29,598 bases of DNA from Calothrix sp. NIES-2098 (lineage in GTDB: Bacteria > Cyanobacteriota > Cyanobacteriia > Cyanobacteriales > Nostocaceae), in assembly GCA_002368175.1 (NCBI GenBank), contig AP018172.1, positions 1 through 29,598 of the forward strand, in the 5' to 3' direction. Positions 3,818-22,010 of the stretch are shown one piece after another. A program made the position numbers and the translations under genes. How positions within the stretch are numbered: position 1 is the stretch's first letter; the number at the start of each line of letters is the position of its first letter. The notes below the pieces were generated by a model that was not told where the DNA came from, searched no databases, and was given only the letters and a program-made list of their open reading frames with translations.

Positions 3818-3937
3818 GGGTTTTAAACTAACCGCCAAGAATTATTTGCTCAGAATATCTAGCTGTGTTCTCTGCGCCTCTGCGTGAATTCCTTTTTTAA
3901 ATCTATATTCACGACTAAATAAAATAACTATATTTAT

Positions 3938-5770: not shown

Positions 5771-5814
5771 TTAATAGTCATTGTCTCCTGCCTTATCCAC
5801 CTACTTAATTATTT

Positions 5815-8538
5815 ATGTCTATAATTTTACTTCTCGCCACCTTATCTCTAAATCCTGCTGTCAATTTAATTAACCAAAGTTCTCCCTTAGTTGCAGCCAT
5901 TAACCCCCAGGTATCACAGACTCAAACTGCAAATGCTAAGGAATTATTAGATCGAGGTTTAATAGCATACCAAAAAGAACAATATTCTCCAGCACTCAAG
6001 ATTTTCCAACAGGCGAATGAATCGTTTCAAGCTACAGGAGATAAACTTAATCAAGCGCTGATATTGAATTATCTTTCCTTAACTTATCAACAGTTAGGAA
6101 AATTAGCTGATGCTCAACACGCTACAGAGCAAAGTTTGCAGTTATTAAATAGCAAAAGTAATAGCAAAGATTATTTATCGATTCGTGCCCAAGCACTTAA
6201 TACTCAAGGCCAGTTACAACTAGCAAGGGGAGAAACAGAAAAAGCTTTAAATAGCTGGCAAGAGGCAACAGCTACTTACAGTAAAATTGGTGATGAATCA
6301 GGTAAAATTGGTAGCAAAATCAATCAAGCTCAAGCACTACAAACATTAGGGCTTTACCGTCGCGCTACTAATATTTTAGAGGAAATTAAGCTGACTTTAG
6401 ATAAACAACCAGACTCTCTATTGAAAGTAACTGGATTTCTTAGTCTGGGTAATAGCTTACGTGTGGTTGGAGATGTCGATAAATCTCGGCAAATATTAGA
6501 GAAAAGTTGTCAGATACAAGCAAAAATATCGCAAGCTGAAGAAGTTTGTAATTTAAAGTTAAGTTTAGGTAACAAAGCCCAAGTAGAACCAAACATCGAA
6601 CAAGATAGATTAGGAGAAATTCTTTTAAGTTTGGGGAATACTGCCCAGGAACAGCAAAACATCGAAGAAGCAATACAGTTTTATGAACGCGCTGCTAGTA
6701 TTTCTCAAAAGCCAACAACACAGTTACCAGCACAATTAAATCAATTACGGCTATTAGTTCAGTCTTTATCAACAGAGTCAATAACGCCAGCTTTGTCACA
6801 AGATATTCTCTCTAAAATTGCCAATTTATCAACAAAGCTTGAGAGTTTACCTGCCAGCCGTAGTAGTGTTTATGCTCGAATTAACTTTGCCCAAACTCTA
6901 GTTAAGTTAACAAAAACAGGTGTGTTAGCAGAGGAAAATATTGCTCAAGATACCTGCACAGCTTCCAATTCTCTCTGTACGGCTGCTAAAGTTGTCGCTA
7001 CAGGTTTTCAGCAAGCTAAAAATCTCGAAGATGTACGCGCCCAAGCCTATGCTTTAGGTACTTTGGGAAGTTTGTACGAACAAACTCAACAATGGTCGGA
7101 AGCTCAAACTTTGACTCAACAAGCGCTAAAATTAGCAGAGGGTATTCAAGCACGAGATATAGCTTATCGTTGGCAATGGCAGTTAGGACGAATTCTCAGT
7201 GCGGATGGTAATACTCAAGGTAATGAGTTAGGTGCCATTGCAGCTTATGATAAAGCAGTCAAGAATTTAAAATCTATCCGTCGCGATTTAGTTACTGTTA
7301 ATCGCGATGCCCAATTTTCTTTTCGGGATGAAGTAGAACCAGTCTATCGAGAATATGTGAGTTTGCTATTACCAAAAACTGGGGAACCTACTACTGAAAA
7401 TTTAGATAAAGCTAGAAAAGTTATTGAATCGTTACAGTTAGCAGAATTAGATAACTTTTTTCGCAGAGCTTGTGTAGACGCTAAACCCGTACAAATTGAT
7501 GAAATCGATCGGCAGAAACAAACAGCTGTAATTTATCCTGTGGTTTTGAGCGATCGCTTATCTATTATTCTCTCATTACCGCATCAGCAAAACAATAAAT
7601 CCCTGAAATTACATACAGTTATTCTGCCTAAAAATGCATTTGAAGAAAAAATTAAAGAACTGCATAGAAAAATATTTTTTAGAAGTTCTCGTGACTTTCT
7701 AGAAACTTCACAGCAAGTATACGAATGGTTGATTCGCCCTATCGAATCAGATTTACAAAATAGCGGTGTGAAAAATATCGTCTTTGTTTTAGACGGAACA
7801 TTGCAGAGTATCCCAATTGCAGCACTTTACGATCGAGAGAAAAAAGAATATTTAATTGAGAAAAAATATAACATTGCTAACACACCAGGTTTAGAATTAT
7901 TACCTCCTCAGCCTTTAACAAACAAACGCTTACAAGCAGTAGTTGGTGGACTCAGTGAAGCCCGTGATAATTTTCCGGCATTACCGGGAGTAAAATATGA
8001 GCTTGAGCAAATCAAAGGTATATTTTCGACAGCCGGAAATTTTATAGATAACAATTTTACGATCAAAAAAATTGAAGAAGCTGTTAAGTCTTTTCCAGGG
8101 GGAATATTACACTTAGCAACTCATGGTAAGTTTAGTTCTAAAGCAGAAGACACGTTCATTTTGACTTGGAATCAACGGCTAAATGTTAACGATTTTAGTT
8201 CTGTATTAAAAACTCGCGAGACCAATCAACAAACTGCAATAGATTTACTTGTCTTAAGTGCTTGTGAAACAGCAGCAGGTGATAGCCGCGCTGCTTTAGG
8301 ATTAGCGGGAATTGCTGTACAGTCTGGCGCGCGCAGTACATTAGCAACTCTGTGGAGTGTGAATGATGAAGCAACTGCGGCTCTAATGATTCAGTTTTAC
8401 AAAGAAATTGCTCAGAATCAAAAAAAAGCTGAAGCTTTACGTAACGCCCAACTATTTCTACTTTCAGGACAGTTAAATCCTAAATTTAAACATCCCTATT
8501 ACTGGGCACCTTTTGTTTTAGTAGGTAATTGGCAGTAA
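5815..8538 (+). CDS. TPR-repeat protein with C-terminal CHAT (caspase-like) peptidase domain and N-terminal signal peptide
   Basis: N-terminus MSIILLLATLSLNPAVNLINQ is signal-peptide-like. TPR-like helical repeats lie at roughly aa 40-480 (YQQLGKLADA, LGLYRRA etc.). CHAT hallmarks: His in HLATHGKF (codon at 8122-8124) and Cys in LVLSACETAAG (codon at 8263-8265), then WSVNDEATAALM and a C-terminal HPYYWAPFVLVGNW. The gene starts 44 nt after the TpsB stop. Confidence 0.85.
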   Translation: MSIILLLATLSLNPAVNLINQSSPLVAAINPQVSQTQTANAKELLDRGLIAYQKEQYSPALKIFQQANESFQATGDKLNQALILNYLSLTYQQLGKLADAQHATEQSLQLLNSKSNSKDYLSIRAQALNTQGQLQLARGETEKALNSWQEATATYSKIGDESGKIGSKINQAQALQTLGLYRRATNILEEIKLTLDKQPDSLLKVTGFLSLGNSLRVVGDVDKSRQILEKSCQIQAKISQAEEVCNLKLSLGNKAQVEPNIEQDRLGEILLSLGNTAQEQQNIEEAIQFYERAASISQKPTTQLPAQLNQLRLLVQSLSTESITPALSQDILSKIANLSTKLESLPASRSSVYARINFAQTLVKLTKTGVLAEENIAQDTCTASNSLCTAAKVVATGFQQAKNLEDVRAQAYALGTLGSLYEQTQQWSEAQTLTQQALKLAEGIQARDIAYRWQWQLGRILSADGNTQGNELGAIAAYDKAVKNLKSIRRDLVTVNRDAQFSFRDEVEPVYREYVSLLLPKTGEPTTENLDKARKVIESLQLAELDNFFRRACVDAKPVQIDEIDRQKQTAVIYPVVLSDRLSIILSLPHQQNNKSLKLHTVILPKNAFEEKIKELHRKIFFRSSRDFLETSQQVYEWLIRPIESDLQNSGVKNIVFVLDGTLQSIPIAALYDREKKEYLIEKKYNIANTPGLELLPPQPLTNKRLQAVVGGLSEARDNFPALPGVKYELEQIKGIFSTAGNFIDNNFTIKKIEEAVKSFPGGILHLATHGKFSSKAEDTFILTWNQRLNVNDFSSVLKTRETNQQTAIDLLVLSACETAAGDSRAALGLAGIAVQSGARSTLATLWSVNDEATAALMIQFYKEIAQNQKKAEALRNAQLFLLSGQLNPKFKHPYYWAPFVLVGNWQ

Positions 8539-8601
8539 TACTAGATACGATCTCATTTAATATGGGAAAATAAACAGCATAATTGGGAGGAAGCAATCGG
8601 C

Positions 8602-9153
8602 ATGAGCGTTATTACTGCCAAGTGGACGATTGACGAATATCACCGCATGATTGACGCTGGCATTTTGAGTTCGCGCAAAGTTGAATTACTTAAAGGAGAA
8701 ATTGTCGAAATGTCGCCGGAAGGGGAACCTCATGCTTATTCTAGTGATGAAGCTGGTGAGTATTTAGCAAACTTATTGAGCGAGCGTGCTAAAATTCGTC
8801 ATGCTAAACCAATTACCCTACCTAACGACTCAGAACCAGAACCAGATATTGCCATTGTTCAACGTTTAGGACGCGAGTATCGAGAGCATCATCCTTATTC
8901 AGAAAATATTTTCTGGGTGATTGAATATGCTAACTCTAGTTTAGACAAAGATCTAGAGACAAAAAGTAAAATCTATGCAGAAGCAGGAATTTTAGAATAT
9001 TGGGTTGTCAATCTTAAAAAGTTACATCTAGTAGTGTTTAGAGACATCCTAGATGGAGAGTATGCAACCAAACAAACGTTAACTTCAGGAACAATTCAAC
9101 CACTTGCATTTCCAGATATTTCTGTTGAAGTAGAAAAAATTATTAATAGGTAA
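8602..9153 (+). CDS. Uma2-family (DUF820) putative PD-(D/E)XK endonuclease
   Basis: The N-terminus (WTIDEYHRMIDAGIL...VELLKGEIVEMSPEG..PHA) and C-terminal D...E.K-like segments (PDIAIV, VIEYANSS, ILEYWVVNL) match a family that is very abundant in cyanobacteria. Assignment from family knowledge. Confidence 0.75.
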   Translation: MSVITAKWTIDEYHRMIDAGILSSRKVELLKGEIVEMSPEGEPHAYSSDEAGEYLANLLSERAKIRHAKPITLPNDSEPEPDIAIVQRLGREYREHHPYSENIFWVIEYANSSLDKDLETKSKIYAEAGILEYWVVNLKKLHLVVFRDILDGEYATKQTLTSGTIQPLAFPDISVEVEKIINR

Positions 9154-9182
9154 TTACGAATTGCCAATTAGTAATTAATTTA

Positions 9183-9203
9183 GGACTTACGCAATTGGCA
9201 CAA
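9183..9203. repeat. IS terminal inverted repeat (one end)
   Basis: Seen in sequence; it pairs with 10408..10428. Confidence 0.55.
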
Positions 9204-9243
9204 ATAGCAGGCAGGGCAAAGCCCTGACACGCGACAATATAAA

Positions 9244-10257
9244 TCAAACCAAGCACATAAAAATACTTGGGCGCTTCAGTTGCTGAATTAAATAATTAGA
9301 AAGCAAGTTATGCTTGATTTGATAGATAGTTTTGCCAGTTCTATAGGCTAAATTCTTTAACCTAACCCAAACCAACATTGCACAAGCAATATGATTTCTT
9401 TGGAGTCTAGCTTTCCGACACTGGCAAGATTCAATGCCAGTTAGTTGTTTAATTTCCCTGTGAAACTCCTCTATTTTCCAACGAATTTTACACACCTGTT
9501 GTACAACATCCGTGGAACTTTGAGATAAATCGTTAGTGGCGACATAATCCGTTCTGTTGGTAGAAACAGTAACCCGGAATAGTTTCACTTTTTTATTAGC
9601 TGGGAATCCTTTAATTTTTATGATTTTACCACAGTCTAATTCTTCTTGGTTCCATTCTAATAATTCAATCCGTTTATATTTTTCTTGACCAAATGTATCA
9701 TCAACTAAACGATTATTTTTTAAAGGGCAATAATAAATTTTGTCTAAGCTATCAATATATAGCATTAAACTGTGTACCGCATACCATGTATCCATCAAAA
9801 CAGTATCAAATGGTAAAAGCTTATGATACACAAGGTTTTGGAGCATATCTTTCACATGGTCTATCTTGGTTTTCCCATCGACATCAGGATTAAAAATTCG
9901 ATAATCTATGACCCAAAATCTTTGAAGTGTAGGGTTGACATACACGCAGCTAACTACACCAATGCCTTTCAGGACACCATGCTCATTACCACTATATTGT
10001 CTTCTGACTATTTCTATTTCTTCAGAATACTTTTTATCTAAAACGCTATCATCAAATATGATGTAACCATTTTCATCAGACTCAACGACCTCTTTCACGT
10101 TATCCCATAGTAAACGAGGTGTTAATTTTTCGGTTTTCAAATAATAGTTAATTGCGTCATGACTAATACTCTCTAAATGCTCTGCCAAATTGGTAATTGT
10201 ATAATTAATTTGACTACTTAATAAATATTGGCAGTAATTAAGCTTAGTAAATCTCAT
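9244..10257 (-). CDS. DDE transposase (IS4/IS5/IS701 superfamily)
   Basis: 337 aa. The C-terminal motif CKIRWKIEEFHREIK has the R-x3-E-x6-K signature of the IS4/IS5/IS701 DDE transposase superfamily. Acidic residues are spaced consistently with a DDE triad. The ORF is flanked by the TIRs above. Confidence 0.75.
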   Translation of the reverse strand: MRFTKLNYCQYLLSSQINYTITNLAEHLESISHDAINYYLKTEKLTPRLLWDNVKEVVESDENGYIIFDDSVLDKKYSEEIEIVRRQYSGNEHGVLKGIGVVSCVYVNPTLQRFWVIDYRIFNPDVDGKTKIDHVKDMLQNLVYHKLLPFDTVLMDTWYAVHSLMLYIDSLDKIYYCPLKNNRLVDDTFGQEKYKRIELLEWNQEELDCGKIIKIKGFPANKKVKLFRVTVSTNRTDYVATNDLSQSSTDVVQQVCKIRWKIEEFHREIKQLTGIESCQCRKARLQRNHIACAMLVWVRLKNLAYRTGKTIYQIKHNLLSNYLIQQLKRPSIFMCLV

Positions 10258-10407
10258 TACCCTTAGCGAAATTTATCTAATATAACCTCTACCTATTTTC
10301 TCACGAATATTTCGATAGTACTTCCAAGACAGCGACTTCTATTACGAAGGCAAAGCTTTCAAAATCAGATTTAATTAATACATATGTACTATGAACTAAC
10401 GATCGCA

Positions 10408-10433: not shown

Positions 10434-11426
10434 TTATAAGGTTAATTTTACCAACTTAGCAGTATCGGGAAAATCACTAAAGACGCCATCAACGCCTAAG
10501 CTGAAAAATAGCTCGTATTCTTTTTGCGGATTACCTTGAAAATCGAGAGGTAAAAACAAATCTTCATTGCGGAAAGTCCAAGCATGAACTAGCAAACCAG
10601 CGTTATGAGCATCGGTGATTAATGATGTAGGCAATCGCAATTTACCATGACTATCTCTAGGCACAAGCAGATTTTTATGAACTCCAATCGCCTTTGCATA
10701 TTTAGCAATCTCTGTTAAACCTGATGCTGTCACCAAGTCTGCATAGGTGCGATCGCCTCCATTGACGATAAAATCATAAGGCTTTCCAGTATTATTAATT
10801 AATTGCACTAAAGGTAAATCAGTTTTTGTTGCTAAATATTTGAGGTTGCTAACTTCAAAAGACTGGATGAATACAGGTGCATTCGCTCCTTGATAACCGT
10901 TCGCCTGTAAACTTGCTAGTAAAGGTTCTTCTAGCGGTAATCCAATCGACTGGAAATAAGAAGGGTGCTTGGTTTCTGGATAAATACCAATGGTACGACC
11001 AACTGCGGTACTTTTAGCCTTGGCTAAATTGATGATTTCTTGCAGTGTGGGAATTTCAAATAGTCCATCATAGTTTGTATTTTGCGATCGCACTTCGGGA
11101 ATTCGCTCTTTTGCCCGTAGTGTTTTTAGTTCTGCCAGGGTAAAGTCTTCAGTAAACCAGCCTGTTTTGGTTTCTCCATCAATAATTTTGGTAGTTTGGC
11201 GTTGAGCAAATTCCGCATGGTTACCAACATCAGTCGTTTCCGAAATTTCATTTTCGTGACGAGCAATTAATACACCGTCTTTGCTAGCAACTAAATCTGG
11301 TTCAATATAATCAGCCCCTAAATCAATTGCTAATTCATAAGCAGCCAATGTATGTTCTGGACGATAGCCGCTAGCACCTCTATGTCCAATAATGATTGGG
11401 GGTGTACCTTGCAAAGTTTTAGTCAT
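10434..11426 (-). CDS. glpQ: Glycerophosphodiester phosphodiesterase (GDPD family, GlpQ/UgpQ-like)
   Basis: N-terminal IIIGHRGASGYRPEHTLAAYELAIDLGADYIEPDLVASKDGVLIARHENE is the canonical GDPD catalytic His/Arg/Glu/Asp arrangement. Confidence 0.85.
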   Translation of the reverse strand: MTKTLQGTPPIIIGHRGASGYRPEHTLAAYELAIDLGADYIEPDLVASKDGVLIARHENEISETTDVGNHAEFAQRQTTKIIDGETKTGWFTEDFTLAELKTLRAKERIPEVRSQNTNYDGLFEIPTLQEIINLAKAKSTAVGRTIGIYPETKHPSYFQSIGLPLEEPLLASLQANGYQGANAPVFIQSFEVSNLKYLATKTDLPLVQLINNTGKPYDFIVNGGDRTYADLVTASGLTEIAKYAKAIGVHKNLLVPRDSHGKLRLPTSLITDAHNAGLLVHAWTFRNEDLFLPLDFQGNPQKEYELFFSLGVDGVFSDFPDTAKLVKLTL

Positions 11427-11917
11427 TAACGCCCCTAAAATAAATCTATCTTGTGTTAGCGATTGGTTGGTGTCGGCTTAGAGGTATTATTTGTGCTAGG
11501 ATTGCCTTCTGTTTAATTACACAATCTTACATAAATTAGTAGCTGTGCGCACGAAAACTATAAAAGCAGCACTAGATATAGATGAAAGCTATCGTTAAAA
11601 AACAATGTAGTCAAGGCTACAAAATGCATCAGATATTTATTTGACAAGGTTAATTTTATTACCTCAAAATAGTTCATCCTATATACCATGAGACTGATGC
11701 TAATAAAAGGATTCAGAATCTTATCACAGTAATAAAATGTATTAATAAATTTTGCTATATTGATTGTATAATTTTTCTAACTGATTATGTGCGCAACCGG
11801 ACAGACTCAAGTTTACTTTTTCAGTAAGCTTAGAAGCAGTTAGTTAACAAAAATATTTTGAAAATTGTTTAAGTAAAGGTCATTTATATACCATTTTAAT
11901 CATATAAATTTTGAGAT

Positions 11918-11944
11918 TTTTTCTGCAATTTAATTGCAGAAAAA
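11918..11944. promoter_or_regulatory. Near-perfect AT-rich palindrome (13-bp arms, 1-nt spacer) inside an 809-bp AT-rich divergent intergenic region; candidate operator or weak terminator
   Basis: Sequence tttTTCTGCAATT t AATTGCAGAAaaa followed by TTTTTGCTGTTTTT on the + strand. Seen in sequence; the function is inferred. Confidence 0.3.
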
Positions 11945-12235
11945 TTTTTGCTGTTTTTCCATATAATTATTAATATATTGATAAAAAAATATAATACTTA
12001 AGAATTATTTGGAAATTGAATATTATACTTACTCAGGCAGATGAGAAAGGCAAAAAAGCACCAGTATTATTATCAATAATTCCACAAATTACTGATCGTA
12101 CCAATTCAATATAAAAATGCGCCAAACAAAGCTGAAAGCTTTAGTTTAAGGTGATTTAGGCGTTTCTTATAAAGAAAAGGTCTTAGAGATTGGCTAGCGA
12201 GAATTAATAAACATAAGGAATGAGAGTGAGCTTTT

Positions 12236-14677
12236 ATGCCCAGTGAAAAAGCTAAAGTCAAAAACAACGGTGTCAGTAATATTATTTCACCAAAGCAGAG
12301 CAATAGAAAGCGATCGCAGCTGGAAGAAACGCAATCATCAGGTACATCACTGCTGCATTCAAGTTCATCAAATAAAAAGATTCAACTAACGGAAACCTTT
12401 CAAGATACTCCTGATATCATCTGCTTATCTCATCTGCGTTGGAATTTTGTTTATCAACGACCACAACATCTTCTTAGCCGTTGCGCCCAAGGAAAACGAG
12501 TTTTCTTTATTGAGGAGCCAATTTTCTCCCCCGATCCCGTGGGCAGGTTAGAGATCGACGAAGATGCTAGTGGGGTAGTCGTGGTTGTACCACATCTACC
12601 AGAAGGAATGAGTGAAGAAGCTATCAACGCAGATTTACAAGTTTTAATTGATGGTTTGTTTGCCAAACATAAAATCGACAAATACATTTGTTGGTATTAC
12701 ACGCCAATAGCGATCGCATTTACTCGCCATTTGCAGCCTCAAGCCATAGTGTATGATTGCATGGATGAATTGTCTGCATTCAAAGGCGCATCACCCACGT
12801 TAAAGAATTACGAAGCCGAACTATTCCGCCTTGCAGACTTAGTATTTACAGGGGGACAAAGCCTTTACGAAAGTAAAGTCAACCAGCATCCCAACGTCTA
12901 TGCATTTCCTAGCAGTGTAGATGTGCCACACTTTGCCCAAGCCAGAAATATTCCAGAAGCAGCAGATCAAGCCCATATTCCCCATCCTCGCCTCGGATTT
13001 TTTGGCGTCATTGACGAACGGATGGATATTGAACTGCTGGCTGGTATTGCCGAAGCGCGTCCTGATTGGCATTTAGTAATTATTGGGCCAGTTGTCAAAA
13101 TCGATCCCGCAACTTTACCACAGCACGAGAATATACATTATCTCGGTGGCAGAGACTATAAACAACTACCTGCCTATTTAGCAGGGTGGGATTTGGCAAC
13201 ATTACCCTTTGCGCGTAATGAGTCAACACGCTTTATTAGTCCTACCAAAACTCCAGAGTATCTTGCCGCAGGTCGACCTGTAGTATCCACCTCAATTCGC
13301 GATGTGGTGCGTCCCTACGGCGAGTCGAAACTGGTGCGAATTGCAGACACAGTTTCGGATTTCGTCACCGCCGCCGAACAAGCAATGCAAGAAGACACCA
13401 GAACATCAGAATGGTTGAGTCGAGTAGATGCTTTCTTAGAAAAGATTTCTTGGGATCGGACTTGGGCATCAATGATGAAACTGATTGATTCTGCCATTGC
13501 TGCCCGCGATAGTGAAGACAAAGCTAACTCCAAAGGTGCAGCGAGTACACAAGCACCAAATATCATTACTAGAGAATTTGTCTTCGATTACTTGGTTGTC
13601 GGCGCTGGTTTTTCTGGCAGCGCGATCGCCGAACGTTTGGCAAGTCAGTCTGGTAAAAAAGTACTGATTGTAGACAAGCGCAATCACATCGGCGGCAATG
13701 CCTACGATCATTATGACGATCATGGCGTTCTCGTACACAGATACGGCCCGCATATCTTTCACACCAACTCCCGCGAAGTCTTTGAATACCTTTCGCGCTT
13801 CACTCAGTGGCGTTCTTACGAACATCGCGTTCTGGCAAGTGTAGACGGGCAACTTGTCCCGATTCCCATCAACCTCGACACCATCAACAAGTTGTATGGT
13901 ATGAATCTCAATTCATTCGAGGTGCAGGAGTTTTACAAATCACTCGCTGAACCAATAGAAAACATCCGCACTAGTGAGGATGTGGTGGTGAGCAAAGTTG
14001 GTCGAGAACTGTATGAAAAGTTTTTCCGGGGTTATACGCGCAAGCAATGGGGACTCGACCCATCAGAACTTGATAAATCAGTAATTGCCCGGATACCGAC
14101 CCGCACCAACCGCGACAATCGTTATTTTACCGATACTTACCAAGCAATGCCACTGCACGGCTTTACGCGGATGTTTGAGAATATGCTCAATCATCCGAAT
14201 ATCAAGATAATGCTGAACACAGATTATCGGGAAATTCAAAAAGCCATTCCTTGCCGTGAAATGGTTTACACAGGCCCAGTTGATGAATTTTTTGATTATC
14301 GCTATGGCAAGCTACCATATCGATCGCTCGATTTTAAGCATGAGACACACAACACAACTGTGTTTCAATCAGCACCAGTCATCAACTATCCTAACGAACA
14401 CCTTTATACCCGCGTGACGGAGTTTAAGTACTTAACTGGGCAGGAACACAATAAAACTAGTATTGTGTACGAATTTCCCAAAGCTGAGGGCGATCCTTAC
14501 TATCCTATACCGCGTCAAGAAAATAACGAAATGTACAAGCAGTATAAGGCGCTGTCTGATACGACACCAGGAGTATATTTTGTCGGCAGACTAGCAACCT
14601 ACAAGTACTACAACATGGATCAATGTGTTGCTCAGGCTCTCTCTGTGTACAAGCAAATTGCCGTTAAAGCCTCATAA
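12236..14677 (+). CDS. Bifunctional glycosyltransferase (N-terminal, GT-B-like) / UDP-galactopyranose mutase (C-terminal Glf domain) fusion protein
   Basis: C-terminal ~370 aa match UGM/Glf throughout: FAD motif VVGAGFSGSAIA, KRNHIGGNAY, YGPHIFHT, GYTRKQWG, RIPTRTNRDNRYF, YRSLDF, GDPYYPI, GRLATYKYYNMDQ. N-terminal ~440 aa resemble a GT-B fold glycosyltransferase (WNFVYQRPQHLL, FFIEEP). The first ~60 aa are Ser/Lys-rich low complexity, so the start is uncertain. Confidence 0.8.
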   Translation: MPSEKAKVKNNGVSNIISPKQSNRKRSQLEETQSSGTSLLHSSSSNKKIQLTETFQDTPDIICLSHLRWNFVYQRPQHLLSRCAQGKRVFFIEEPIFSPDPVGRLEIDEDASGVVVVVPHLPEGMSEEAINADLQVLIDGLFAKHKIDKYICWYYTPIAIAFTRHLQPQAIVYDCMDELSAFKGASPTLKNYEAELFRLADLVFTGGQSLYESKVNQHPNVYAFPSSVDVPHFAQARNIPEAADQAHIPHPRLGFFGVIDERMDIELLAGIAEARPDWHLVIIGPVVKIDPATLPQHENIHYLGGRDYKQLPAYLAGWDLATLPFARNESTRFISPTKTPEYLAAGRPVVSTSIRDVVRPYGESKLVRIADTVSDFVTAAEQAMQEDTRTSEWLSRVDAFLEKISWDRTWASMMKLIDSAIAARDSEDKANSKGAASTQAPNIITREFVFDYLVVGAGFSGSAIAERLASQSGKKVLIVDKRNHIGGNAYDHYDDHGVLVHRYGPHIFHTNSREVFEYLSRFTQWRSYEHRVLASVDGQLVPIPINLDTINKLYGMNLNSFEVQEFYKSLAEPIENIRTSEDVVVSKVGRELYEKFFRGYTRKQWGLDPSELDKSVIARIPTRTNRDNRYFTDTYQAMPLHGFTRMFENMLNHPNIKIMLNTDYREIQKAIPCREMVYTGPVDEFFDYRYGKLPYRSLDFKHETHNTTVFQSAPVINYPNEHLYTRVTEFKYLTGQEHNKTSIVYEFPKAEGDPYYPIPRQENNEMYKQYKALSDTTPGVYFVGRLATYKYYNMDQCVAQALSVYKQIAVKAS

Positions 14678-14694
14678 TTAGGGCTTTTTTGTAG

Positions 14695-14724
14695 GGTGCG
14701 TTAGGACATTAGTCCTAACGCACC
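14695..14724 (+). terminator. GC-rich hairpin (13-bp perfect stem, 4-nt loop) downstream of the GT/UGM gene; possible terminator or RNA structure
   Basis: Stem GGTGCGTTAGGAC-atta-GTCCTAACGCACC. The T6 run lies upstream of the stem rather than downstream, so this is not a canonical intrinsic terminator. Confidence 0.3.
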
Positions 14725-14882
14725 GAAAGTCTCGGATAGGGCTAAGAGAGGGGCATAACACACCCTAAAAATTACTGATGGTCAAGATTTTTACAGCCGT
14801 TTTCACGTATTTGAACCACATCTATCCAGCTAAAAATAGCTGTAATCCATCCAAAATCCAAAATTGGTATGAGTTGTAAATT

Positions 14883-17093
14883 ATGACTTCTGCTTTCAAC
14901 TCGACACTCAATACTACCAAATCACAACTTCCCCTAGAAGTGTGGGCTGGTCTAGAGTGTACGGTTAATCGTGTGGGTGACGAGTATTTCGATCAGTTAG
15001 AACGCAATGGTCATGCAACGCGTTTAGATGACCTAGATTTATTCGCTGAACTAGGTATACAAGCCATCCGCTATCCAGTGCTGTGGGAACGCATAGCACC
15101 GAATGGATTGGAGAATGCTGACTGGTCGTGGGCAGATGAACGATTAGAACGCTTGCACAAACTTGGTATCCGTCCGATTGTGGGATTAGTCCATCATGGC
15201 AGCGGCCCGCGTGATACAAGCTTGATAGATCCAGAATTTCCTGAGAAACTAGCGGTTTTTGCGCGGGCGGTGGCGAAACGCTACCCTTGGATAACACATT
15301 ACACACCTGTAAACGAACCACTGACAACAGCCCGATTTAGTGGGATGTACGGTCACTGGTATCCTCACGGTCAAGACGATTTAACTTTTGCCCGTGCTTT
15401 GTTGGGAGAATGTCGAGCGATCGCACTTTCAATGCAAGCCATCCGCGAAGTTAACCCCAATGCTCAACTCGTACAAACTGAAGATTTAGGAAAGATTTAC
15501 AGTACGCCAAAGCTGGCTTATCAAGCAGAATTTGAGAACGAGCGCCGCTGGTTGAGCTTTGATTTATTGTGTGGTCGAGTTACTCCAACTCATCCCATGT
15601 GGGGTTACTTGCGCCATTGTGGTGTCAGCGAGGCTGAAATAGAAGTATTTTTACAAAATCCCTGTCCGCCTGACATTATCGGCATTAACCACTATCTGAC
15701 GAGCGAGCGCTTTTTAGATGAGCATCTAGAAAATTATCCCGCTTGCACGCATGGCGGTAACGGGCGGGATAACTATGCAGATGTGGAGGCTGTACGAGTT
15801 TGTGCTGAAGGTTTGGCAGGGCCGCGAACTTTGCTCAAAGAGACATGGGAACGCTATCAACTGCCCCTAGCTGTGACTGAAGTTCACCTCAGTTGCACCC
15901 GTGAAGAACAGTTACGCTGGCTCCATGAAGTGTGGAACGCAGCTCAAGAATTACGAGAACAGGGTGCAGATGTGCGTGCTGTGACGGCTTGGGCACTGCT
16001 CGGCAGCTACGATTGGAATAGTTTACTAACTCGCTGTGTAGGATACTACGAGTCAGGGGTATTTGATTTGCGCTCATTACGTCCTCGTCCAACAGCGATC
16101 GCCAAAATGGTGCAAGATTTAGCCACTGGACGTCAACCCAATCACCCCATACTCGACACCCCAGGATGGTGGCATCGGCAAGAACGACTCTTATACCCAG
16201 CAGTCATTTGTGATAAGAACAGAGGGGAATTTCAATCTCTACTCTCCCCTGCTTCCTCTCGTCCGCTAGCAATAATTGGAGCCACAGGTACTTTAGGTAG
16301 GGCTTTCGCTCGCTTGTGCGAACTACGTGGCATCTCCTATCGCCTGCTCACACGGCAAGATATGGACATTGCCAATCCCGCTTCCGTTGATGCAGCCCTT
16401 ACCGAGTTACAACCTTGGGCAGTTGTGAATGCTGCGGGATACGTGCGAGTAGATGATGCAGAACGCGAACCTCATATTTGTTTAAAGATAAACGCTGAAG
16501 GCCCGGCAATTTTAGCTGCTGCTTGTGCTAAACATCATGTAGCGCTGCTGACTTTTTCATCAGATTTAGTATTTGATGGTGCTGTCTCTAATCCTTATAT
16601 CGAAACTGATAGCGTTGCTCCTCTGAATGTGTATGGGTGCAGCAAAGTTTTGGCAGAAAAGCTTGTATTACAGGCTTATCCAGCATCCTTAGTGATTCGT
16701 ACCAGTGCATTTTTCGGCCCTTGGGATGAGTACAACTTTGTCACCATCGCCCTGCGACAATTAGCAGCAGGTAATACTTTTGTAGCCGCAGAAGATGCGA
16801 TCGTCTCACCTACTTATGTACCCGATCTTGTTCATACCAGCCTTGATTTGCTAATTGATGGCGAGAACGGTTTATGGCACTTGGCAAATAAAGACGCTGT
16901 AGCTTGGGCTGACTTGGCACGATTAGCGGCGAAAAAAGCAGGTGTGAGTGTTAGCGGTTTAATTTCTGTGCCTACACAAGAACTAGGTTTCATCGCTCCT
17001 CGCCCAGCTTATAGCGTTCTCGGTAGCAGTCGCGGTGAATTAATGCCACACCTTGATAGTGCAATTTCTCGCTACTTGGAAGAGAGAGGCTAA
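14883..17093 (+). CDS. Fusion protein: N-terminal clan GH-A-like TIM-barrel glycoside-hydrolase-like domain + C-terminal RmlD-like (dTDP-4-dehydrorhamnose reductase family) domain
   Basis: N-terminal domain has the clan GH-A acid/base signature NEP (YTPVNEPLTT) and a nucleophile-like TE (LAVTEVHLS). C-terminal ~280 aa has the RmlD pattern: IIGATGTLG, VVNAAGYVRVDDAEREP, NAEGPAILA, SSDLVFDG, YGCSK (catalytic YxxxK). Confidence 0.7.
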   Translation: MTSAFNSTLNTTKSQLPLEVWAGLECTVNRVGDEYFDQLERNGHATRLDDLDLFAELGIQAIRYPVLWERIAPNGLENADWSWADERLERLHKLGIRPIVGLVHHGSGPRDTSLIDPEFPEKLAVFARAVAKRYPWITHYTPVNEPLTTARFSGMYGHWYPHGQDDLTFARALLGECRAIALSMQAIREVNPNAQLVQTEDLGKIYSTPKLAYQAEFENERRWLSFDLLCGRVTPTHPMWGYLRHCGVSEAEIEVFLQNPCPPDIIGINHYLTSERFLDEHLENYPACTHGGNGRDNYADVEAVRVCAEGLAGPRTLLKETWERYQLPLAVTEVHLSCTREEQLRWLHEVWNAAQELREQGADVRAVTAWALLGSYDWNSLLTRCVGYYESGVFDLRSLRPRPTAIAKMVQDLATGRQPNHPILDTPGWWHRQERLLYPAVICDKNRGEFQSLLSPASSRPLAIIGATGTLGRAFARLCELRGISYRLLTRQDMDIANPASVDAALTELQPWAVVNAAGYVRVDDAEREPHICLKINAEGPAILAAACAKHHVALLTFSSDLVFDGAVSNPYIETDSVAPLNVYGCSKVLAEKLVLQAYPASLVIRTSAFFGPWDEYNFVTIALRQLAAGNTFVAAEDAIVSPTYVPDLVHTSLDLLIDGENGLWHLANKDAVAWADLARLAAKKAGVSVSGLISVPTQELGFIAPRPAYSVLGSSRGELMPHLDSAISRYLEERG

Positions 17094-17110
17094 GACAAGA
17101 GGCAGGGGGG

Positions 17111-17137
17111 AGTGTGGGAAGTGTGGGGAGTGTGGGG
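17111..17137. repeat. Short tandem repeat, 3 x 9-mer AGTGTGGG(A/G)
   Basis: Seen in sequence (agtgtggga agtgtgggg agtgtgggg). It is followed by three spaced copies of AATGACAA up to the next start codon. Confidence 0.5.
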
Positions 17138-17176
17138 AGAAAAGACTTATGCTTAATGACAAATGACAAATAACCA

Positions 17177-17758
17177 ATGACAAAAACTATTTTAATTACG
17201 GGAGGAGCCGGATATATTGGCTCCCATGCAGTATTAGCTCTCAGAAATGCAGGTTATGAAGTAATTGTTTTAGATAACCTGTCGAATGGACATCGAGAAC
17301 TTGTAGAAGATGTTTTGCAGGTAAAGTTAATTGTTGGGGATATGAGCGATCGCTCTCTTCTCGCTCGCATATTCTCCACTCATAATATAGATGCAGTGAT
17401 GCATTTTGCAGCTTACATTGCTGTGGGTGTATCTGTTACTCATCCAGCCAAATATTACCAAAACAATGTTATCGGTACGCTGACACTTTTAAAAGCAATG
17501 CTCAAAGGCGGAGAAAGCGAAGTATTTAATTTAGGAAATGGTAGTGGTTTTTCAGTTAGAGAATTGATAGAAACTGCCAAGACAGTAACAGGAAGAAAAA
17601 TTAAAATCGAAGAGCGCGATCGCAGACCAGGCGATCCTCCTATTTTAGTTGGTAGTAGCTACAAAGCAAGACAACAATTGGGTTGGCAACCTCAATACCC
17701 AAACTTAGAAGAAATTATCAGTCACGCTTGGCAATGGCATCAGAAACGCCATATTTAA
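17177..17758 (+). CDS. UDP-glucose 4-epimerase (GalE)-like protein with in-frame internal deletion of the catalytic core (probably non-functional remnant)
   Basis: N-terminus ILITGGAGYIGSH...VLDNLSNG...DAVMHFAA..KYYQNNVIGTLTLLKAM is the GalE Rossmann part up to about residue 115. It joins directly to GalE C-terminal sequence (EVFNLGNGSGFSVRELIE...RRPGDPPILVGSSYKARQQLGWQP), which corresponds to residues ~245-330. The catalytic Ser and YxxxK region is absent. Confidence 0.6.
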   Translation: MTKTILITGGAGYIGSHAVLALRNAGYEVIVLDNLSNGHRELVEDVLQVKLIVGDMSDRSLLARIFSTHNIDAVMHFAAYIAVGVSVTHPAKYYQNNVIGTLTLLKAMLKGGESEVFNLGNGSGFSVRELIETAKTVTGRKIKIEERDRRPGDPPILVGSSYKARQQLGWQPQYPNLEEIISHAWQWHQKRHI

Positions 17759-18062
17759 ATTGAATTTGTCAATCATTTATAGTTTGGATTACATAGAGGA
17801 ATAGCATTGAATTTTCTATATATCTGTAGAGTGGGAATTGCCAAACATCCACTTAATTTTTACTGCTATATTTATCTTTCAGGTTATAAAGATTGTAGAT
17901 GAATTTTGCCTCTAAAGATAGAAACTAACCAAAATTTACCTCGATAAAATTAGAACATTAAATTAGATATTAATTTCAGTGGTTTTGCTGAAATATAACT
18001 TCGGCAAATAAGCACTATTTAATTTTCTAATTAAAAATATAACAAGGCAAAGAGGTATTGGT

Positions 18063-18836
18063 TTGAATATTTGCGAGCGACCACTTAGCTATTATATAAA
18101 AATTGAGCAATTCAGCGCTCAAGAAAATACTGTTTATGGGCTGGTAATTGCCATACTAATTATTAGCCTTTGGGTAGGTAGTTTGGCTTTGTTACTGAGC
18201 ATTAACTATGCCATAATGCCAGTTTGGTTAATACCGATTGCTATAGTTTGGCAAATGTTCCTCTATACAGGATTATTCATTACTGCGCATGATGCTATGC
18301 ATGGGTCGATTTTTCGCAAAAATCCGAAAATTAATAATTTTATCGGTTCGCTAGCTGTAACGCTTTACGCTGTGTTTCCATATCAACAGCTTTTAAAGAA
18401 ACATTGGTTACATCATCGTCATCCTGCTAGCGAACTTGACCCCGATTTTCATGATGGTAAAAGCGAAAATGCAATTTCCTGGTATTTCCGCTTCATGAAA
18501 GAATACTCTAATTGGCGACAATTAATAGTGCTAACTATCGTATTTAATTTGGCTAAATACTTTTTGCATATCTCAGAAATTAATCTCATCTTATTTTGGA
18601 GTATTCCACCAATTTTAAGTTCAATGCAACTGTTTTATTTCGGAACTTTTTTACCTCATCGAGAACCGGAATTAGGGTACATTTATCCCCATTGCAGCCA
18701 AACAATTGCCTTGCCAACTTTTTGGTCATTCATCGCTTGCTACCACTTTGGTTATCATGAAGAACATCATGAGTATCCCCATGTACCTTGGTGGCAACTT
18801 CCATCTATATATAGGCAGAGAGTCTTGAATAATTAA
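18063..18836 (+). CDS. crtW: Beta-carotene ketolase (CrtW family, membrane di-iron hydroxylase/desaturase fold)
   Basis: Histidine boxes HDAMHG, HHRHP and HEEHHEYPHVPW sit within a hydrophobic membrane protein and resemble cyanobacterial CrtW. The called start is a TTG; the true start may lie a few codons either side. Confidence 0.8.
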   Translation: MNICERPLSYYIKIEQFSAQENTVYGLVIAILIISLWVGSLALLLSINYAIMPVWLIPIAIVWQMFLYTGLFITAHDAMHGSIFRKNPKINNFIGSLAVTLYAVFPYQQLLKKHWLHHRHPASELDPDFHDGKSENAISWYFRFMKEYSNWRQLIVLTIVFNLAKYFLHISEINLILFWSIPPILSSMQLFYFGTFLPHREPELGYIYPHCSQTIALPTFWSFIACYHFGYHEEHHEYPHVPWWQLPSIYRQRVLNN

Positions 18837-18899
18837 GTTGAATTTTGAGTATTATTGCTGTTGATGTAGAGTTGAGCAGAAGCGAAAATCTCAAATGCA

Positions 18900-20174
18900 A
18901 TGACTCACTTTGGCATTATTTGCCCACCCTATCCCGGACATATAAACCCCCAAGCTGCTTTGGGACGAGAATTACAATTGCGCGGTCATCGGGTTACTTT
19001 TTTGCAAATTCCCGATTTGGAATTCAAGGTGCGATCGCAAGGAGTCAACTTTCATCCGATTGGCGAAGCGATTTATCAACCTGGTTCAATGGCTGAAACC
19101 TTTGCTCAATTGGGAAAGTTAAGTGCTGTAGAGGCGTTGCGTTACTCCCTGGATTTTTGCCAGCAAATGGTGGAAATCATCTGTCAAGATGCACCAAAAG
19201 CGATCGCCGCAACGGGAATTGAGGTTTTGCTAGTAGATCAACTCGAACCTGTGGGCGAAACAGTAGCAGAATATCTCAACCTTCCGTTTATCTGCATTTC
19301 TTGCGGCCAGGTAATTCACCGTCGCGCTGATGTTCCGCCTTTTTTTACTCCTTGGAATTATCAAAATACCCCGTGGGCAAAAATCCGCAATCAGGTAGCT
19401 TATTACTTTTTAGATCGCAATTGTCAACCAATTTTGCGAACGATTAATCGCTATCGCCAACAGTGGAAGTTGCCAAATTATCGCCATATCTACGCCTCCA
19501 ACGCCCGACTCGCCCATATTAGCCAACAACCTCCAACATTTGAATTTCCTATTCCCAACTTGCGATCGCACCTCCATTATGTAGGGCCTTTACGCAACGC
19601 TTCACCACAATTGATTGATTTTCCCTACGATAAACTGACTACACAGCCGATGATTTATGCTTCCTTGGGAAGCGTCCAAAACACTAAATATGAAGTATTT
19701 TGTTGCATTGCTGCTGCTTGTGCAGAACTAGATGTACAACTGGTAATTGCACATGGAGGTGGAATGAGTGCAGAAATGGAGCAATCTTTACCTGGTTGTC
19801 CATTAGTCGTCGAGTATGCACCTCAACCAGATGTCATGGCCAAAGCCAATCTGACGATTACCCATGCGGGGATGAATACAACATTGGATTCTCTCAGCTA
19901 CGGTGTACCTTTAGTAGCCATTCCCATCACCTTTGAACAACCGGGAACAGGCGCACGCATTCGTTCAACTGGTGTCGGAGAAGTGGTTTCTCTACCAGAA
20001 CTTAGCATTTCCAGATTGCGCTCAAAAATTGAGCAGGTATTAACGACAGATTCCTATAGAAAGAAAGCGCAAAAAATTCAGCAATCAATTCAACAAGCAG
20101 GCGGCGTAAAACAAGCAGCAAATATTATTGAGCAGGTTACTCAATACCAAAGTTCTCAAATTGTAGAGCCATGA
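18900..20174 (+). CDS. crtX: GT1-family carotenoid glycosyltransferase, CrtX (zeaxanthin glucosyltransferase)-like
   Basis: Recognisable similarity along the whole length to Pantoea CrtX: N-terminal MTHFGIICPPYPGHINP...RGHRVTF, LVDQLEPVGETVAEYLNLPF, IYASLGS, VQLVIAHGGG. The PSPG-like box is ANLTITHAGMNTTLDSLSYGVPLVAIPITFEQPGTGARI. It lies 63 nt after crtW. Confidence 0.75.
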   Translation: MTHFGIICPPYPGHINPQAALGRELQLRGHRVTFLQIPDLEFKVRSQGVNFHPIGEAIYQPGSMAETFAQLGKLSAVEALRYSLDFCQQMVEIICQDAPKAIAATGIEVLLVDQLEPVGETVAEYLNLPFICISCGQVIHRRADVPPFFTPWNYQNTPWAKIRNQVAYYFLDRNCQPILRTINRYRQQWKLPNYRHIYASNARLAHISQQPPTFEFPIPNLRSHLHYVGPLRNASPQLIDFPYDKLTTQPMIYASLGSVQNTKYEVFCCIAAACAELDVQLVIAHGGGMSAEMEQSLPGCPLVVEYAPQPDVMAKANLTITHAGMNTTLDSLSYGVPLVAIPITFEQPGTGARIRSTGVGEVVSLPELSISRLRSKIEQVLTTDSYRKKAQKIQQSIQQAGGVKQAANIIEQVTQYQSSQIVEP

Positions 20175-20327
20175 TAAATCTTATGTCGGTTGGTAGATTT
20201 AATTAAGATTTAATAGAGCTAATTATAAGTAAATAGACATAATATAAAACTCCTCTGTAGAGAATTTTGCCTGCTCATTTCCAAATAAAAAGACCGGACT
20301 CAAACAAGTTTCTCAACTGCCAGTATT

Positions 20328-22010
20328 ATGCAAAATATTTATGGCAATATTCAGGGAATAAAAGCCAGCCAAATCAAACGATTACAGCAGCTTTACGAGC
20401 AACGACAACCTGGAGATAGATTGATTACGCCAGAATTTGCTCAAGCTTTAGCGAGGATGAGTACAGACATCCATCAACCAATTTGTTGTTATATCAATCG
20501 ACGGGGGCAAATTATCCGAATTGCTGTGGGAACGCCAAATCAAACTCAAATTCCACCTGAAGAATTACCCCGTCGCAGTGCAGAACGCTTAAGCGGTATT
20601 CGTTGTATTACTACTCAATTTAAATCAGAACCACCTGATGAAGCTGCATTGGTTGCAATGATACGTCAGCGCTTAGATGCGCTAGTAGAATTAAATGTAG
20701 TTGATGGAAAAGTAAAAGATACTTTTTTAGCTTATCTTTTCCCCGATTCTGACAATCCTTGGGTTATTTCACCTCCTTTAAGTTTGAACGATCTAACCGA
20801 ACAAGAATTTGATGTTTTAGTTGCAGAATGGGAAGAAGAAATCGCTGACGCAGGCGTGGGAATATTTCAAGACATTGTATCTGATGAAGATAGGGTTTTG
20901 TTGGTAGGACTACAGACAGAAGATGTCTCTGCGCAACGCTTTGAAGATGGACTTGCTGAACTGGTGCGTTTGGTTGAAAGTGCTGGCGGAATTGTCCTAG
21001 ATACGATGCGACAAAAGCGAGAACGACCCCATCCGCAAACTGTTGTCGGTAAGGGAAAGGTTGAGGAAATTAAACTTTTAGCCCAAAAAGTTAGCGCTAA
21101 TTTGATTGTTTTTGACCGAGATATTTCTGCATCTCAAGCCCGCAATTTGGAACAAGAAATTGGCATTCGAGTTGTAGACCGCACAGAAGTAATTCTCGAT
21201 ATTTTCGCTCAACGCGCTCGTACTCAAGAGGGTAAATTACAAGTAGAATTGGCGCAACTCGAATATATGTTACCTCGGCTGCGCGGTCGCGGTCAGGAAA
21301 TGTCTCGATTAGGTGCAGGAATTGGGACGCGAGGGCCTGGTGAAACAAAACTAGAGACAGAACGGCGAGTAATTCAACGGCGAATTGCTCAACTACAGCA
21401 GGAAGTCAATCAATTACAAGCACATCGCGCCCGCATTAGACAACAACGACAACAGCAAGAAATTCCAGTTGTGGCATTAGTGGGTTACACCAATGCTGGT
21501 AAATCTACGTTGTTGAATGTGTTAACTAATGCAGAAGTTTACACCGCAGACCAACTCTTTGCCACCCTCGACCCGACAACGCGCAAAGTAGTAATTACAG
21601 ATCCAGAAACACAACAACGGCGGTCAATTCTGCTCACAGATACAGTAGGGTTTATCCACGAACTTCCACCACCGCTAATGGATGCATTTCGCGCCACATT
21701 GGAGGAAGTGATTGAGGCAGATGCGATGCTTCATATCGTAGATTTATCCCATCCAGCTTGGGAAAACCATATTGCGAGTGTAGAGGAAATTCTCCAAGAA
21801 ATGCCTGAGATTCCTGAAAAAAGTACGATCGCTTTTAACAAGATTGACCGCGTAGATAGCGAAACTTTGGCGGAAGCTCAACAAAAGTATCCCGAAGCTG
21901 TGTTTATTTCAGCAACTGAGCGCTTGGGTTTAGAGACTTTAAAAATGCGATCGCTCAAACTAATTGACGAACCTATAGAAGCGATCTCTGTCCCACAAAA
22001 TTCATACTAA
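20328..22010 (+). CDS. hflX: GTPase HflX
   Basis: HflX N-terminal domain, glycine-rich segment, then a GTP-binding domain with a P-loop (VALVGYTNAGKSTLLN) and DTVGF (G3). Confidence 0.85.
   Translation: MQNIYGNIQGIKASQIKRLQQLYEQRQPGDRLITPEFAQALARMSTDIHQPICCYINRRGQIIRIAVGTPNQTQIPPEELPRRSAERLSGIRCITTQFKSEPPDEAALVAMIRQRLDALVELNVVDGKVKDTFLAYLFPDSDNPWVISPPLSLNDLTEQEFDVLVAEWEEEIADAGVGIFQDIVSDEDRVLLVGLQTEDVSAQRFEDGLAELVRLVESAGGIVLDTMRQKRERPHPQTVVGKGKVEEIKLLAQKVSANLIVFDRDISASQARNLEQEIGIRVVDRTEVILDIFAQRARTQEGKLQVELAQLEYMLPRLRGRGQEMSRLGAGIGTRGPGETKLETERRVIQRRIAQLQQEVNQLQAHRARIRQQRQQQEIPVVALVGYTNAGKSTLLNVLTNAEVYTADQLFATLDPTTRKVVITDPETQQRRSILLTDTVGFIHELPPPLMDAFRATLEEVIEADAMLHIVDLSHPAWENHIASVEEILQEMPEIPEKSTIAFNKIDRVDSETLAEAQQKYPEAVFISATERLGLETLKMRSLKLIDEPIEAISVPQNSY

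Follow-up and report, generated by a model that had tools for sequence, protein, structure and literature searches.

In the first 29,598 nucleotides of contig AP018172.1 of the cyanobacterium Calothrix sp. NIES-2098 (assembly GCA_002368175.1; this whole 29.6-kb stretch is called the window below), two adjacent genes each encode a fusion of two enzyme domains. The first, ORF A, joins a glycosyltransferase (GT) to a UDP-galactopyranose mutase (UGM), and the second, ORF B, joins a barrel resembling glycoside hydrolase (GH) family 1 to a reductase resembling RmlD. We propose, with a probability of roughly 0.55, that the pair constitutes a conserved two-gene cytoplasmic module that would make UDP-galactofuranose and transfer galactofuranose (Galf) into a glycoconjugate. 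An earlier note on this DNA had described three consecutive co-directional genes, namely two fusions and a galE lacking its core, and the three open reading frames (ORFs) do lie on the + strand as it placed them, at 12236–14677 (ORF A), 14883–17093 (ORF B) and 17177–17758 (ORF C, the galE remnant).

Domain architecture of the two fusions

ORF A encodes 813 aa, identical to BAY06897.1 of Calothrix sp. NIES-2098. A domain check with hidden Markov models agreed with the earlier note in finding a GT fused to a complete UGM, with support from Pfam, NCBIfam and TIGR00031. In particular, the UGM model TIGR00031 scored 400.6 bits against a cut-off of 303.75 over model positions 2–376 of 378, and the Pfam families NAD_binding_8 and GLF together covered aa 454–791, with GLF complete (positions 1–203 of 203). 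The UGM of Deinococcus radiodurans (3HDQ) aligned over its whole length to aa 441–808 with 634 bits, and the D. radiodurans glf product was 73% identical to this half by tblastn. Strong homology thus predicts that the C-terminal half of ORF A (aa ~445–810, + strand, 13568–14665) is a UDP-galactopyranose mutase.

The preceding domain (aa ~58–425, + strand, 12407–13510) is a GT predicted to be of the GT-B type, GT4-like and TuaH-like, and a putative galactofuranosyltransferase. Pfam Glyco_trans_1_4 matched aa 269–385 (39.7 bits, cut-off 27), Glyco_trans_1_2 matched the domain as well, and Glycos_transf_1 stayed below its gathering threshold (18.7 versus 26.4 bits); the TuaH-like NCBIfam model matched aa 133–416 with 83.9 bits. 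Four motifs, VYDCMDEL, FTGG, FPSS and ISPTKTPEYLA, were invariant across phyla. The first 57 residues (+ strand, 12236–12406) form a Ser/Lys/Gln-rich extension of low complexity with a very low predicted local distance difference test score (pLDDT) in a poor AlphaFold2 model of ORF A, only loosely kept in the Nostocales consensus, and homologues from outside cyanobacteria begin at about aa 52–61. The domain junction falls at nt ~13510–13570 in ORF A and at nt ~16200–16260 in ORF B, matching the ~13500 and ~16230 given in the earlier note.

ORF B encodes 736 aa, identical to BAY06898.1, and its AlphaFold2 model reached a pLDDT of 78 and a predicted template modelling score of 0.81. The N-terminal half (aa ~17–440, + strand, 14931–16202) showed the (beta/alpha)8 fold and matched PF00232 (GH1) over aa 49–380 with 47 bits against a cut-off of 22.6. 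Glu145 in VNEP (nt 15315–15317), aligned to the FNEP of solved beta-glucosidases, is the predicted acid/base, and Glu333 in VTEVH (nt 15879–15881), aligned to their ITENG, is the predicted nucleophile. All nine homologues compared from cyanobacteria, Deinococcus, alpha- and beta-proteobacteria and Bacteroidota kept both glutamates, as did all of 38 cyanobacterial sequences. The beta-glucosidase equivalog TIGR03356 scored 65.4 bits, far below its cut-off of 478.5, and we regard this half as a divergent GH1-like subfamily and not as a beta-glucosidase orthologue. The beta-glucosidases in the alignment carry a glycone-binding Glu just before the Trp of DNLEW/DNFEW; in ORF B homologues this position holds D, E or G, suggesting that the glycone is a different one.

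The C-terminal half of ORF B (aa ~460–735, + strand, 16260–17087) is an RmlD-like NAD(P)-dependent short-chain dehydrogenase/reductase (SDR) domain, matching RmlD_sub_bind (PF04321) over aa 463–717 with 202 bits. It carries the motifs of the RmlD fold, GATGTLG, SSD and Y584-G-C-S-K588 (nt 16632–16646). The Y and K of YGCSK were invariant in 38 cyanobacterial homologues, and YxxxK together with GxxG was kept in eight of nine distant homologues. The reading of ORF B as a GH-A-like barrel with NEP and TE signatures joined to an RmlD-like domain with YGCSK was therefore borne out and could be sharpened to a divergent GH1.

The gene pair across cyanobacteria and beyond

We mapped the window proteins onto 80 species-level cyanobacterial loci. 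ORF B was a single uninterrupted ORF in 79 of the 80, and ORF A was one ORF directly 5' of it in 75 of the 76 with enough flank. Full-length homologues of ORF A (79–94% identity) formed 120 clusters from Nostocales and other cyanobacteria, those of ORF B were 73–91% identical, and the fusions numbered more than 100 clusters. Both fusions are therefore real and not assembly chimeras, a possibility that the earlier note had named as able to overturn its reading. Its description of them as unusual did not hold, as both architectures are widespread and highly conserved. An intact galE followed ORF B in 48 of 75 loci.

Outside cyanobacteria, breadth was assessed on plasmid records and an unannotated representative library; a contig scan with a single protein returned only cyanobacteria, and a third, profile-based homologue search returned mostly cyanobacteria again together with one Pyrinomonadaceae match. 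At E<1e-30 the GH1-like domain family comprised 655 representatives of clusters drawn at 50% identity, mostly of 700–750 aa, the length of the RmlD-fused form. On annotated plasmids, tblastn found ORF B orthologues of 50–63% identity in Deinococcus, Azospirillum, Caballeronia, Microvirga, sphingomonads, Ensifer, Mesorhizobium and Runella. Homologues of the ORF A GT domain (47–58% identity) occurred on 134 plasmid or chromid records, and the GT lay directly beside glf or in the same ORF in at least 31 of the 33 plasmid records listing both coordinates, supporting the earlier proposal that UDP-Galf synthesis is coupled to a transferase. Fused GT–UGM forms were present in Azospirillum argentinense (767 aa), Sinorhizobium meliloti M162 and Sphingomonas hankookensis, and in D. 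radiodurans the GT gene is separate and overlaps the start of the UGM gene. GH1–RmlD adjoined GT and/or glf in annotated regions of Caballeronia, A. thermophilum, Runella, Sphingomonas and Gloeothece; in Mesorhizobium 113-3-3 the match coordinates of GT, glf and GH1–RmlD stood side by side, and in D. ficus and D. deserti GH1–RmlD lay farther off on the same replicon. The plasmid and cyanobacterial neighbourhoods together show that GT and UGM form the core and that GH1–RmlD is a frequent partner, constant in cyanobacteria.

Three candidates for a further link were rejected. A 1151-aa protein (P0304, GH1-like part 431–845) had suggested a Rosetta-stone fusion of A with B; it showed no likeness to GT or UGM, and it is probably an over-extended ORF. 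A second such candidate, P0352, had an aminotransferase as its fusion partner. A 'beta-glucosidase' encoded after the GT–UGM fusion in Azospirillum argentinense had no detectable kinship to the GH1-like domain of ORF B. Separately, the Azospirillum thermophilum plasmid (locus L085) carried two GH1–RmlD paralogues within 6 kb (7992–10274 and 13382–15688), one of them adjoining the GT, with a major facilitator superfamily (MFS) transporter gene and an ATP-binding cassette (ABC) ATPase gene between them.

Proposed activity of the module

In the pathway that we propose, UDP-galactose would come from the adjacent GalE in most relatives and, in NIES-2098, by way of galT 7 kb downstream or from another epimerase encoded elsewhere. 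The UGM half of ORF A would, on strong homology, convert UDP-galactopyranose to the thermodynamically disfavoured UDP-Galf. Judging by the recurrent fusion or adjacency, the GT domain would use UDP-Galf at once, passing Galf to some acceptor. The UGM equilibrium disfavours UDP-Galf, and the fusion could pull this unfavourable pyranose-to-furanose step. ORF B would most probably trim, transglycosylate or reduce the sugar part of the Galf product or of the acceptor; its strict pairing with ORF A and intact catalytic motifs point to an apparently competent retaining GH1-type site next to an NAD(P)H reductase. Neither ORF A nor ORF B has a signal peptide, and no Wzx/Wzy, ABC export or polymerase genes stood beside the pair in cyanobacteria, which makes a complete polysaccharide a less likely product than a small glycoside or glycolipid or a lipid-linked early intermediate. 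Two large GTs come after the fusion in S. meliloti, and the module might also feed polysaccharides. PADLOC defence models matched neither ORF A nor ORF B.

Several observations weigh against this proposal. The only PDB relative of the GT domain found by profile search was the GT4 enzyme PimB', a weak match (E=0.012), so that the domain has no close solved relative, and an AlphaFold2 model of ORF A built from 35 homologues reached a pLDDT of 38.7, too low for a GT fold search. ORF A and ORF B are separated by 205 bp. GT and glf often occurred without a GH1–RmlD match (134 versus 48 records), and the GT can thus occur without B. On the Runella plasmid the GT adjoined GH1–RmlD, and the region fetched had no annotated glf; in A. 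thermophilum glf lay 14 kb away. The rmlD equivalog TIGR01214 narrowly missed its cut-off on ORF B (209.6 versus 224.05). The SDR half may be non-catalytic or regulatory in some lineages, as the Caballeronia homologue without YxxxK and GxxG suggests. Finally, the literature on the fusions or on Galf in Nostoc, Deinococcus and Sinorhizobium offered just a descriptive passage on the cluster of N. punctiforme and the Azolla symbiont (PMC2900214) and a general review of Galf enzymes (PMC7278926). Biochemical or genetic work on the two fusions did not turn up there, and donor, acceptor and product are inferred.

Two further observations bear on the same genes. The Caballeronia homologue, on a plasmid of Caballeronia sp. 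Lep1P3 (locus L086, 7989–10214), is a GH1–RmlD protein that retains the GH1 glutamates. A promoter and terminator scan of 11400–20400 gave counts not above those of shuffled sequence and carried no information on operon structure.

The reductase also invites a different assignment, in which the RmlD-like 4-ketoreductase forms dTDP-D-fucopyranose and the UGM-like domain serves as a fucopyranose mutase, yielding D-fucofuranose (6-deoxy-galactofuranose). The Fcf1/Fcf2 pair of E. coli O52 is a precedent for such a route; a 4-reductase-like domain is strictly co-located with a pyranose mutase here, and the reductase falls slightly under the rmlD equivalog cut-off. The mutase half, however, lies above the UGM equivalog cut-off and close to the D. 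radiodurans UGM, the commonest third gene is galE, which supplies UDP-galactose, and the neighbourhood has no 4,6-dehydratase or thymidylyltransferase gene. We consider this route highly improbable. The earlier note had suggested that the RmlD-like half might serve 6-deoxyhexose nucleotide formation; its rmlD score lies just under the cut-off, and neither the window nor the annotated neighbourhoods examined contained rmlA, rmlB or rmlC.

The UDP-Galf module admits a bolder elaboration. A and B together might make a cytoplasmic Galf small molecule or glycolipid not yet described, common to cyanobacteria, Deinococcus, rhizobia and sphingomonads, among which are many soil organisms that tolerate desiccation or radiation; the GT would then represent a new galactofuranosyltransferase family, and the GH1-like domain would be a transglycosylase, not a hydrolase, coupled to NAD(P)H-dependent sugar reduction. 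Taken with all its parts, we think this version quite unlikely.

A galE pseudogene in NIES-2098

ORF C (193 aa; BAY06899.1; + strand, 17177–17758) follows the pair. Aligned to the 328-aa GalE of Nostoc punctiforme, encoded at the same position, both of its ends matched with 85% identity around a clean internal gap of 136 residues, which confirms the earlier observation that the catalytic core is missing. The catalytic Ser and YxxxK (the SSTCALYG...YAISK region) are gone, and what remains is the N-terminal Rossmann part with the last 85 residues. TIGR01179 matched in two stretches with 233.8 bits, below its cut-off of 262.3. ORF C cannot act as an epimerase. DNA alignment with intact relatives showed an in-frame deletion of 408 bp with its junction at nt ~17498–17509, and in those relatives the 408-bp segment is bordered by the imperfect direct repeats ATGCTAAAAGCG and CTGCTCAAAGGCG. 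The protein forms a cluster of one, suggesting a recent, strain-specific pseudogene, which probably arose through slippage or recombination between the short direct repeats. A short G-rich tandem repeat, AGTGTGGGG, occurs in about three copies (17100–17140) within the 83 bp that separate ORF B from the galE remnant.

Nostoc sp. WHI (locus L033, NZ_WBKM01000320.1, 10282–10797) has lost the GalE core independently, again by an in-frame deletion and with another junction (...NNVVG joined to NGSGF...). In the same locus (6029–6729) the GT domain of the ORF A orthologue is broken, with aa 67–270 gone and the frame shifted. This damage indicates that the module decays repeatedly, as in the Azolla symbiont, where the N. 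punctiforme-type cluster is broken up by transposases, one of them within the UGM gene (Ran et al. 2010, PMC2900214).

We also considered an assembly or annotation artefact. Nothing speaks for it in the two fusions; in the shortened galE, an assembly collapse could in principle mimic the loss of 408 bp between short repeats. We put the chance of any such artefact close to nil. It is excluded for the fusions, which are uninterrupted in 75–79 independent genomes, several of them complete, and very unlikely for galE: the NIES-2098 sequence of 8,656,060 bp fits a finished chromosome, an imperfect repeat of 12 bp is not long enough to make an assembly collapse, and the GalE core was lost independently in Nostoc sp. 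WHI with other end points.

Genes around the module

Two further genes lie 7 kb downstream on the opposite strand. The first is galT, encoding galactose-1-phosphate uridylyltransferase (24519–25601, - strand; Pfam GalP_UDP_transf and GalP_UDP_tr_C), and it overlaps by 22 nt a gene for a glycosidase with Pfam GH2 domains (25580–27463, - strand). The best PDB matches of the GH2 protein were 7XYR (310 bits) and 9J6N, 'Beta-D-galactofuranosidase 2' (231 bits), with LacZ/GUS at ~56–81 bits, and it appears nearest to a branch with a solved beta-D-galactofuranosidase. A galT–GH2 pair occurred within 8 kb of A–B in about ten other cyanobacterial loci of the 80, and galT was also present on the Gloeothece plasmid. 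This galactose-related setting, together with the galE that often follows ORF B and with such genes near the pair in Gloeothece and N. punctiforme, counts in favour of the proposed UDP-Galf module.

These neighbours raise the possibility of a catabolic or salvage island for the uptake and breakdown of environmental or plant galactosides, in which the GH1-like half of ORF B and the GH2 protein (GH43 in N. punctiforme) act as cytoplasmic glycosidases, GalK and GalT feed UDP-galactose, and the UGM and GT divert part of it. Besides galT and GH2 inside the window, this account can draw on Gloeothece, where galK, galT, GH2 and an MFS transporter gene flank the pair, on galK and GH43 near the pair in N. 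punctiforme, and on MFS transporters beside it in Sphingomonas and A. thermophilum; the N. punctiforme cluster, moreover, was termed a 'galactose/polysaccharide metabolism' cluster, and it is the one eroded in the Azolla symbiont (Ran et al. 2010, PMC2900214). We nevertheless judge it unlikely. A UGM and a nucleotide-sugar GT are biosynthetic, and their fusion is sensible only for the consumption of UDP-Galf. The strict unit is A with B, whereas only about ten of the 80 loci have Leloir and GH2 genes less than 8 kb off, and the Leloir pathway has no place for an RmlD-like reductase.

Immediately downstream of the galE remnant, after a gap of ~300 bp, stand crtW and then a gene for a GT1/MGT-family glycosyltransferase (18063–20174), an ordered pair found in just two other loci, those of Nostoc sp. 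T09 and Nostoc sp. 106C. The earlier note had labelled these genes crtW and crtX. The first label stands (NF045690, 439.4 bits versus a cut-off of 350); the second was not supported, the gene being a generic GT1/MGT-family match under every curated cut-off (TIGR01426, 180.7 versus 260), though it could encode a putative carotenoid glycosyltransferase. The note had also raised the possibility that the block provides an unusual sugar donor for a carotenoid glycoside or a surface glycan. Spelled out for the carotenoid, the GT1 enzyme would attach Galf or a 6-deoxyhexose to a CrtW ketocarotenoid. Adjacency on the same strand and the shared gene order in the two Nostoc strains are in keeping with this idea, but the synteny check spoke against it: crtW followed the pair in six of 71 loci and a GT1 gene in three of 71, in each case in the closest relatives of NIES-2098. 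The usual genes 3' of the pair are galE and/or hflX with an asparaginase gene, and in NIES-2098 the latter two stand after crtW and GT1. The ~300-bp gap likewise tells against a link, as does the occurrence of the module, without crtW, in organisms that do not photosynthesise (Deinococcus, rhizobia, sphingomonads). Such a carotenoid-glycoside role is thus extremely improbable. With crtW and GT1 confined to the closest relatives and galE or hflX in that place elsewhere, the carotenoid genes are a lineage-specific insertion between the module and hflX, unrelated to the module.

Upstream of ORF A lies an 800-bp, AT-rich intergenic region (~31% GC), preceded by a gene for a Uma2-family endonuclease and a DDE transposase gene of an insertion sequence (8602–10257). 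A two-partner-secretion (TPS) set occupies 326–8538, with a 1163-aa TPS-domain exoprotein and a ShlB/FhaC-type transporter followed by a 907-aa TPR–CHAT protein. An Rfam scan of the whole window gave no match.

Relation to known systems

GlfT1 and GlfT2 belong to CAZy family GT2. The closest parallels to the proposed UDP-Galf module are glf–glfT1/glfT2 of mycobacteria, glf–wbbO of Klebsiella and glf–wbbI of E. coli K-12 (PMC7278926), in which an FAD-type UGM is likewise genetically coupled to a GT expected to use UDP-Galf, with UDP-galactose from GalE. The present system differs from them in being one polypeptide in cyanobacteria and several proteobacteria, in having a GT from a distinct TuaH-like, putatively GT-B subfamily without a characterised member, and in its surroundings, which in cyanobacteria lack polysaccharide export and polymerase genes and offer GH1–RmlD as the constant partner in place of O-antigen enzymes. 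D. radiodurans resembles ORF A in both halves, as its UGM gene is preceded by an overlapping GT gene whose product falls in the subfamily of the ORF A GT and shares 53.5% identity with the N-terminal half of ORF A; its UGM is, however, a stand-alone protein, and the 15-kb region fetched contained no GH1–RmlD gene. We found no biological role of Galf in Deinococcus in the literature searched. ORF B is just 12–19% identical to the GH1 beta-glycosidases BGPh of Pyrococcus horikoshii (1VFF) and BglA of Clostridium (3AHX) and, unlike these, is fused to a reductase. It departs from RmlD (3SC6, 1VL0, 1KBZ) in its TIGR01214 score, in the lack of rmlA, rmlB and rmlC nearby and in its GH1-like domain. 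ORF C shares with GalE its ends and its locus position and differs in the loss of the segment with the catalytic Ser and YxxxK.

Implications

In NIES-2098 itself the locus represents ordinary biology, a conserved locus with one strain-specific pseudogene. What is new here is an architectural variant of the theme of Glf plus a galactofuranosyltransferase, with an unexplained GH1–RmlD partner. The names 'UDP-galactopyranose mutase', 'family 1 glycosylhydrolase' and 'dTDP-4-dehydrorhamnose reductase' each cover half a protein, and the module has stayed hidden behind them. To our knowledge, animals lack galactofuranose, and very few bacterial galactofuranosyltransferases have been characterised. 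GlfT1, GlfT2, WbbI and WbbO are among the few well-characterised prokaryotic ones (PMC7278926). The GT subfamily described here, which in hundreds of genomes from at least four phyla is either fused to UGM or encoded next to it, is a strong candidate for a new galactofuranosyltransferase family, and its pairing with GH1–RmlD predicts an undescribed glycoside-processing step. The locus is also a good lead to what Galf does in cyanobacteria and Deinococcus. If true, the galactofuranosyltransferase role would give a biological context to the structurally well-studied UGM of D. radiodurans.

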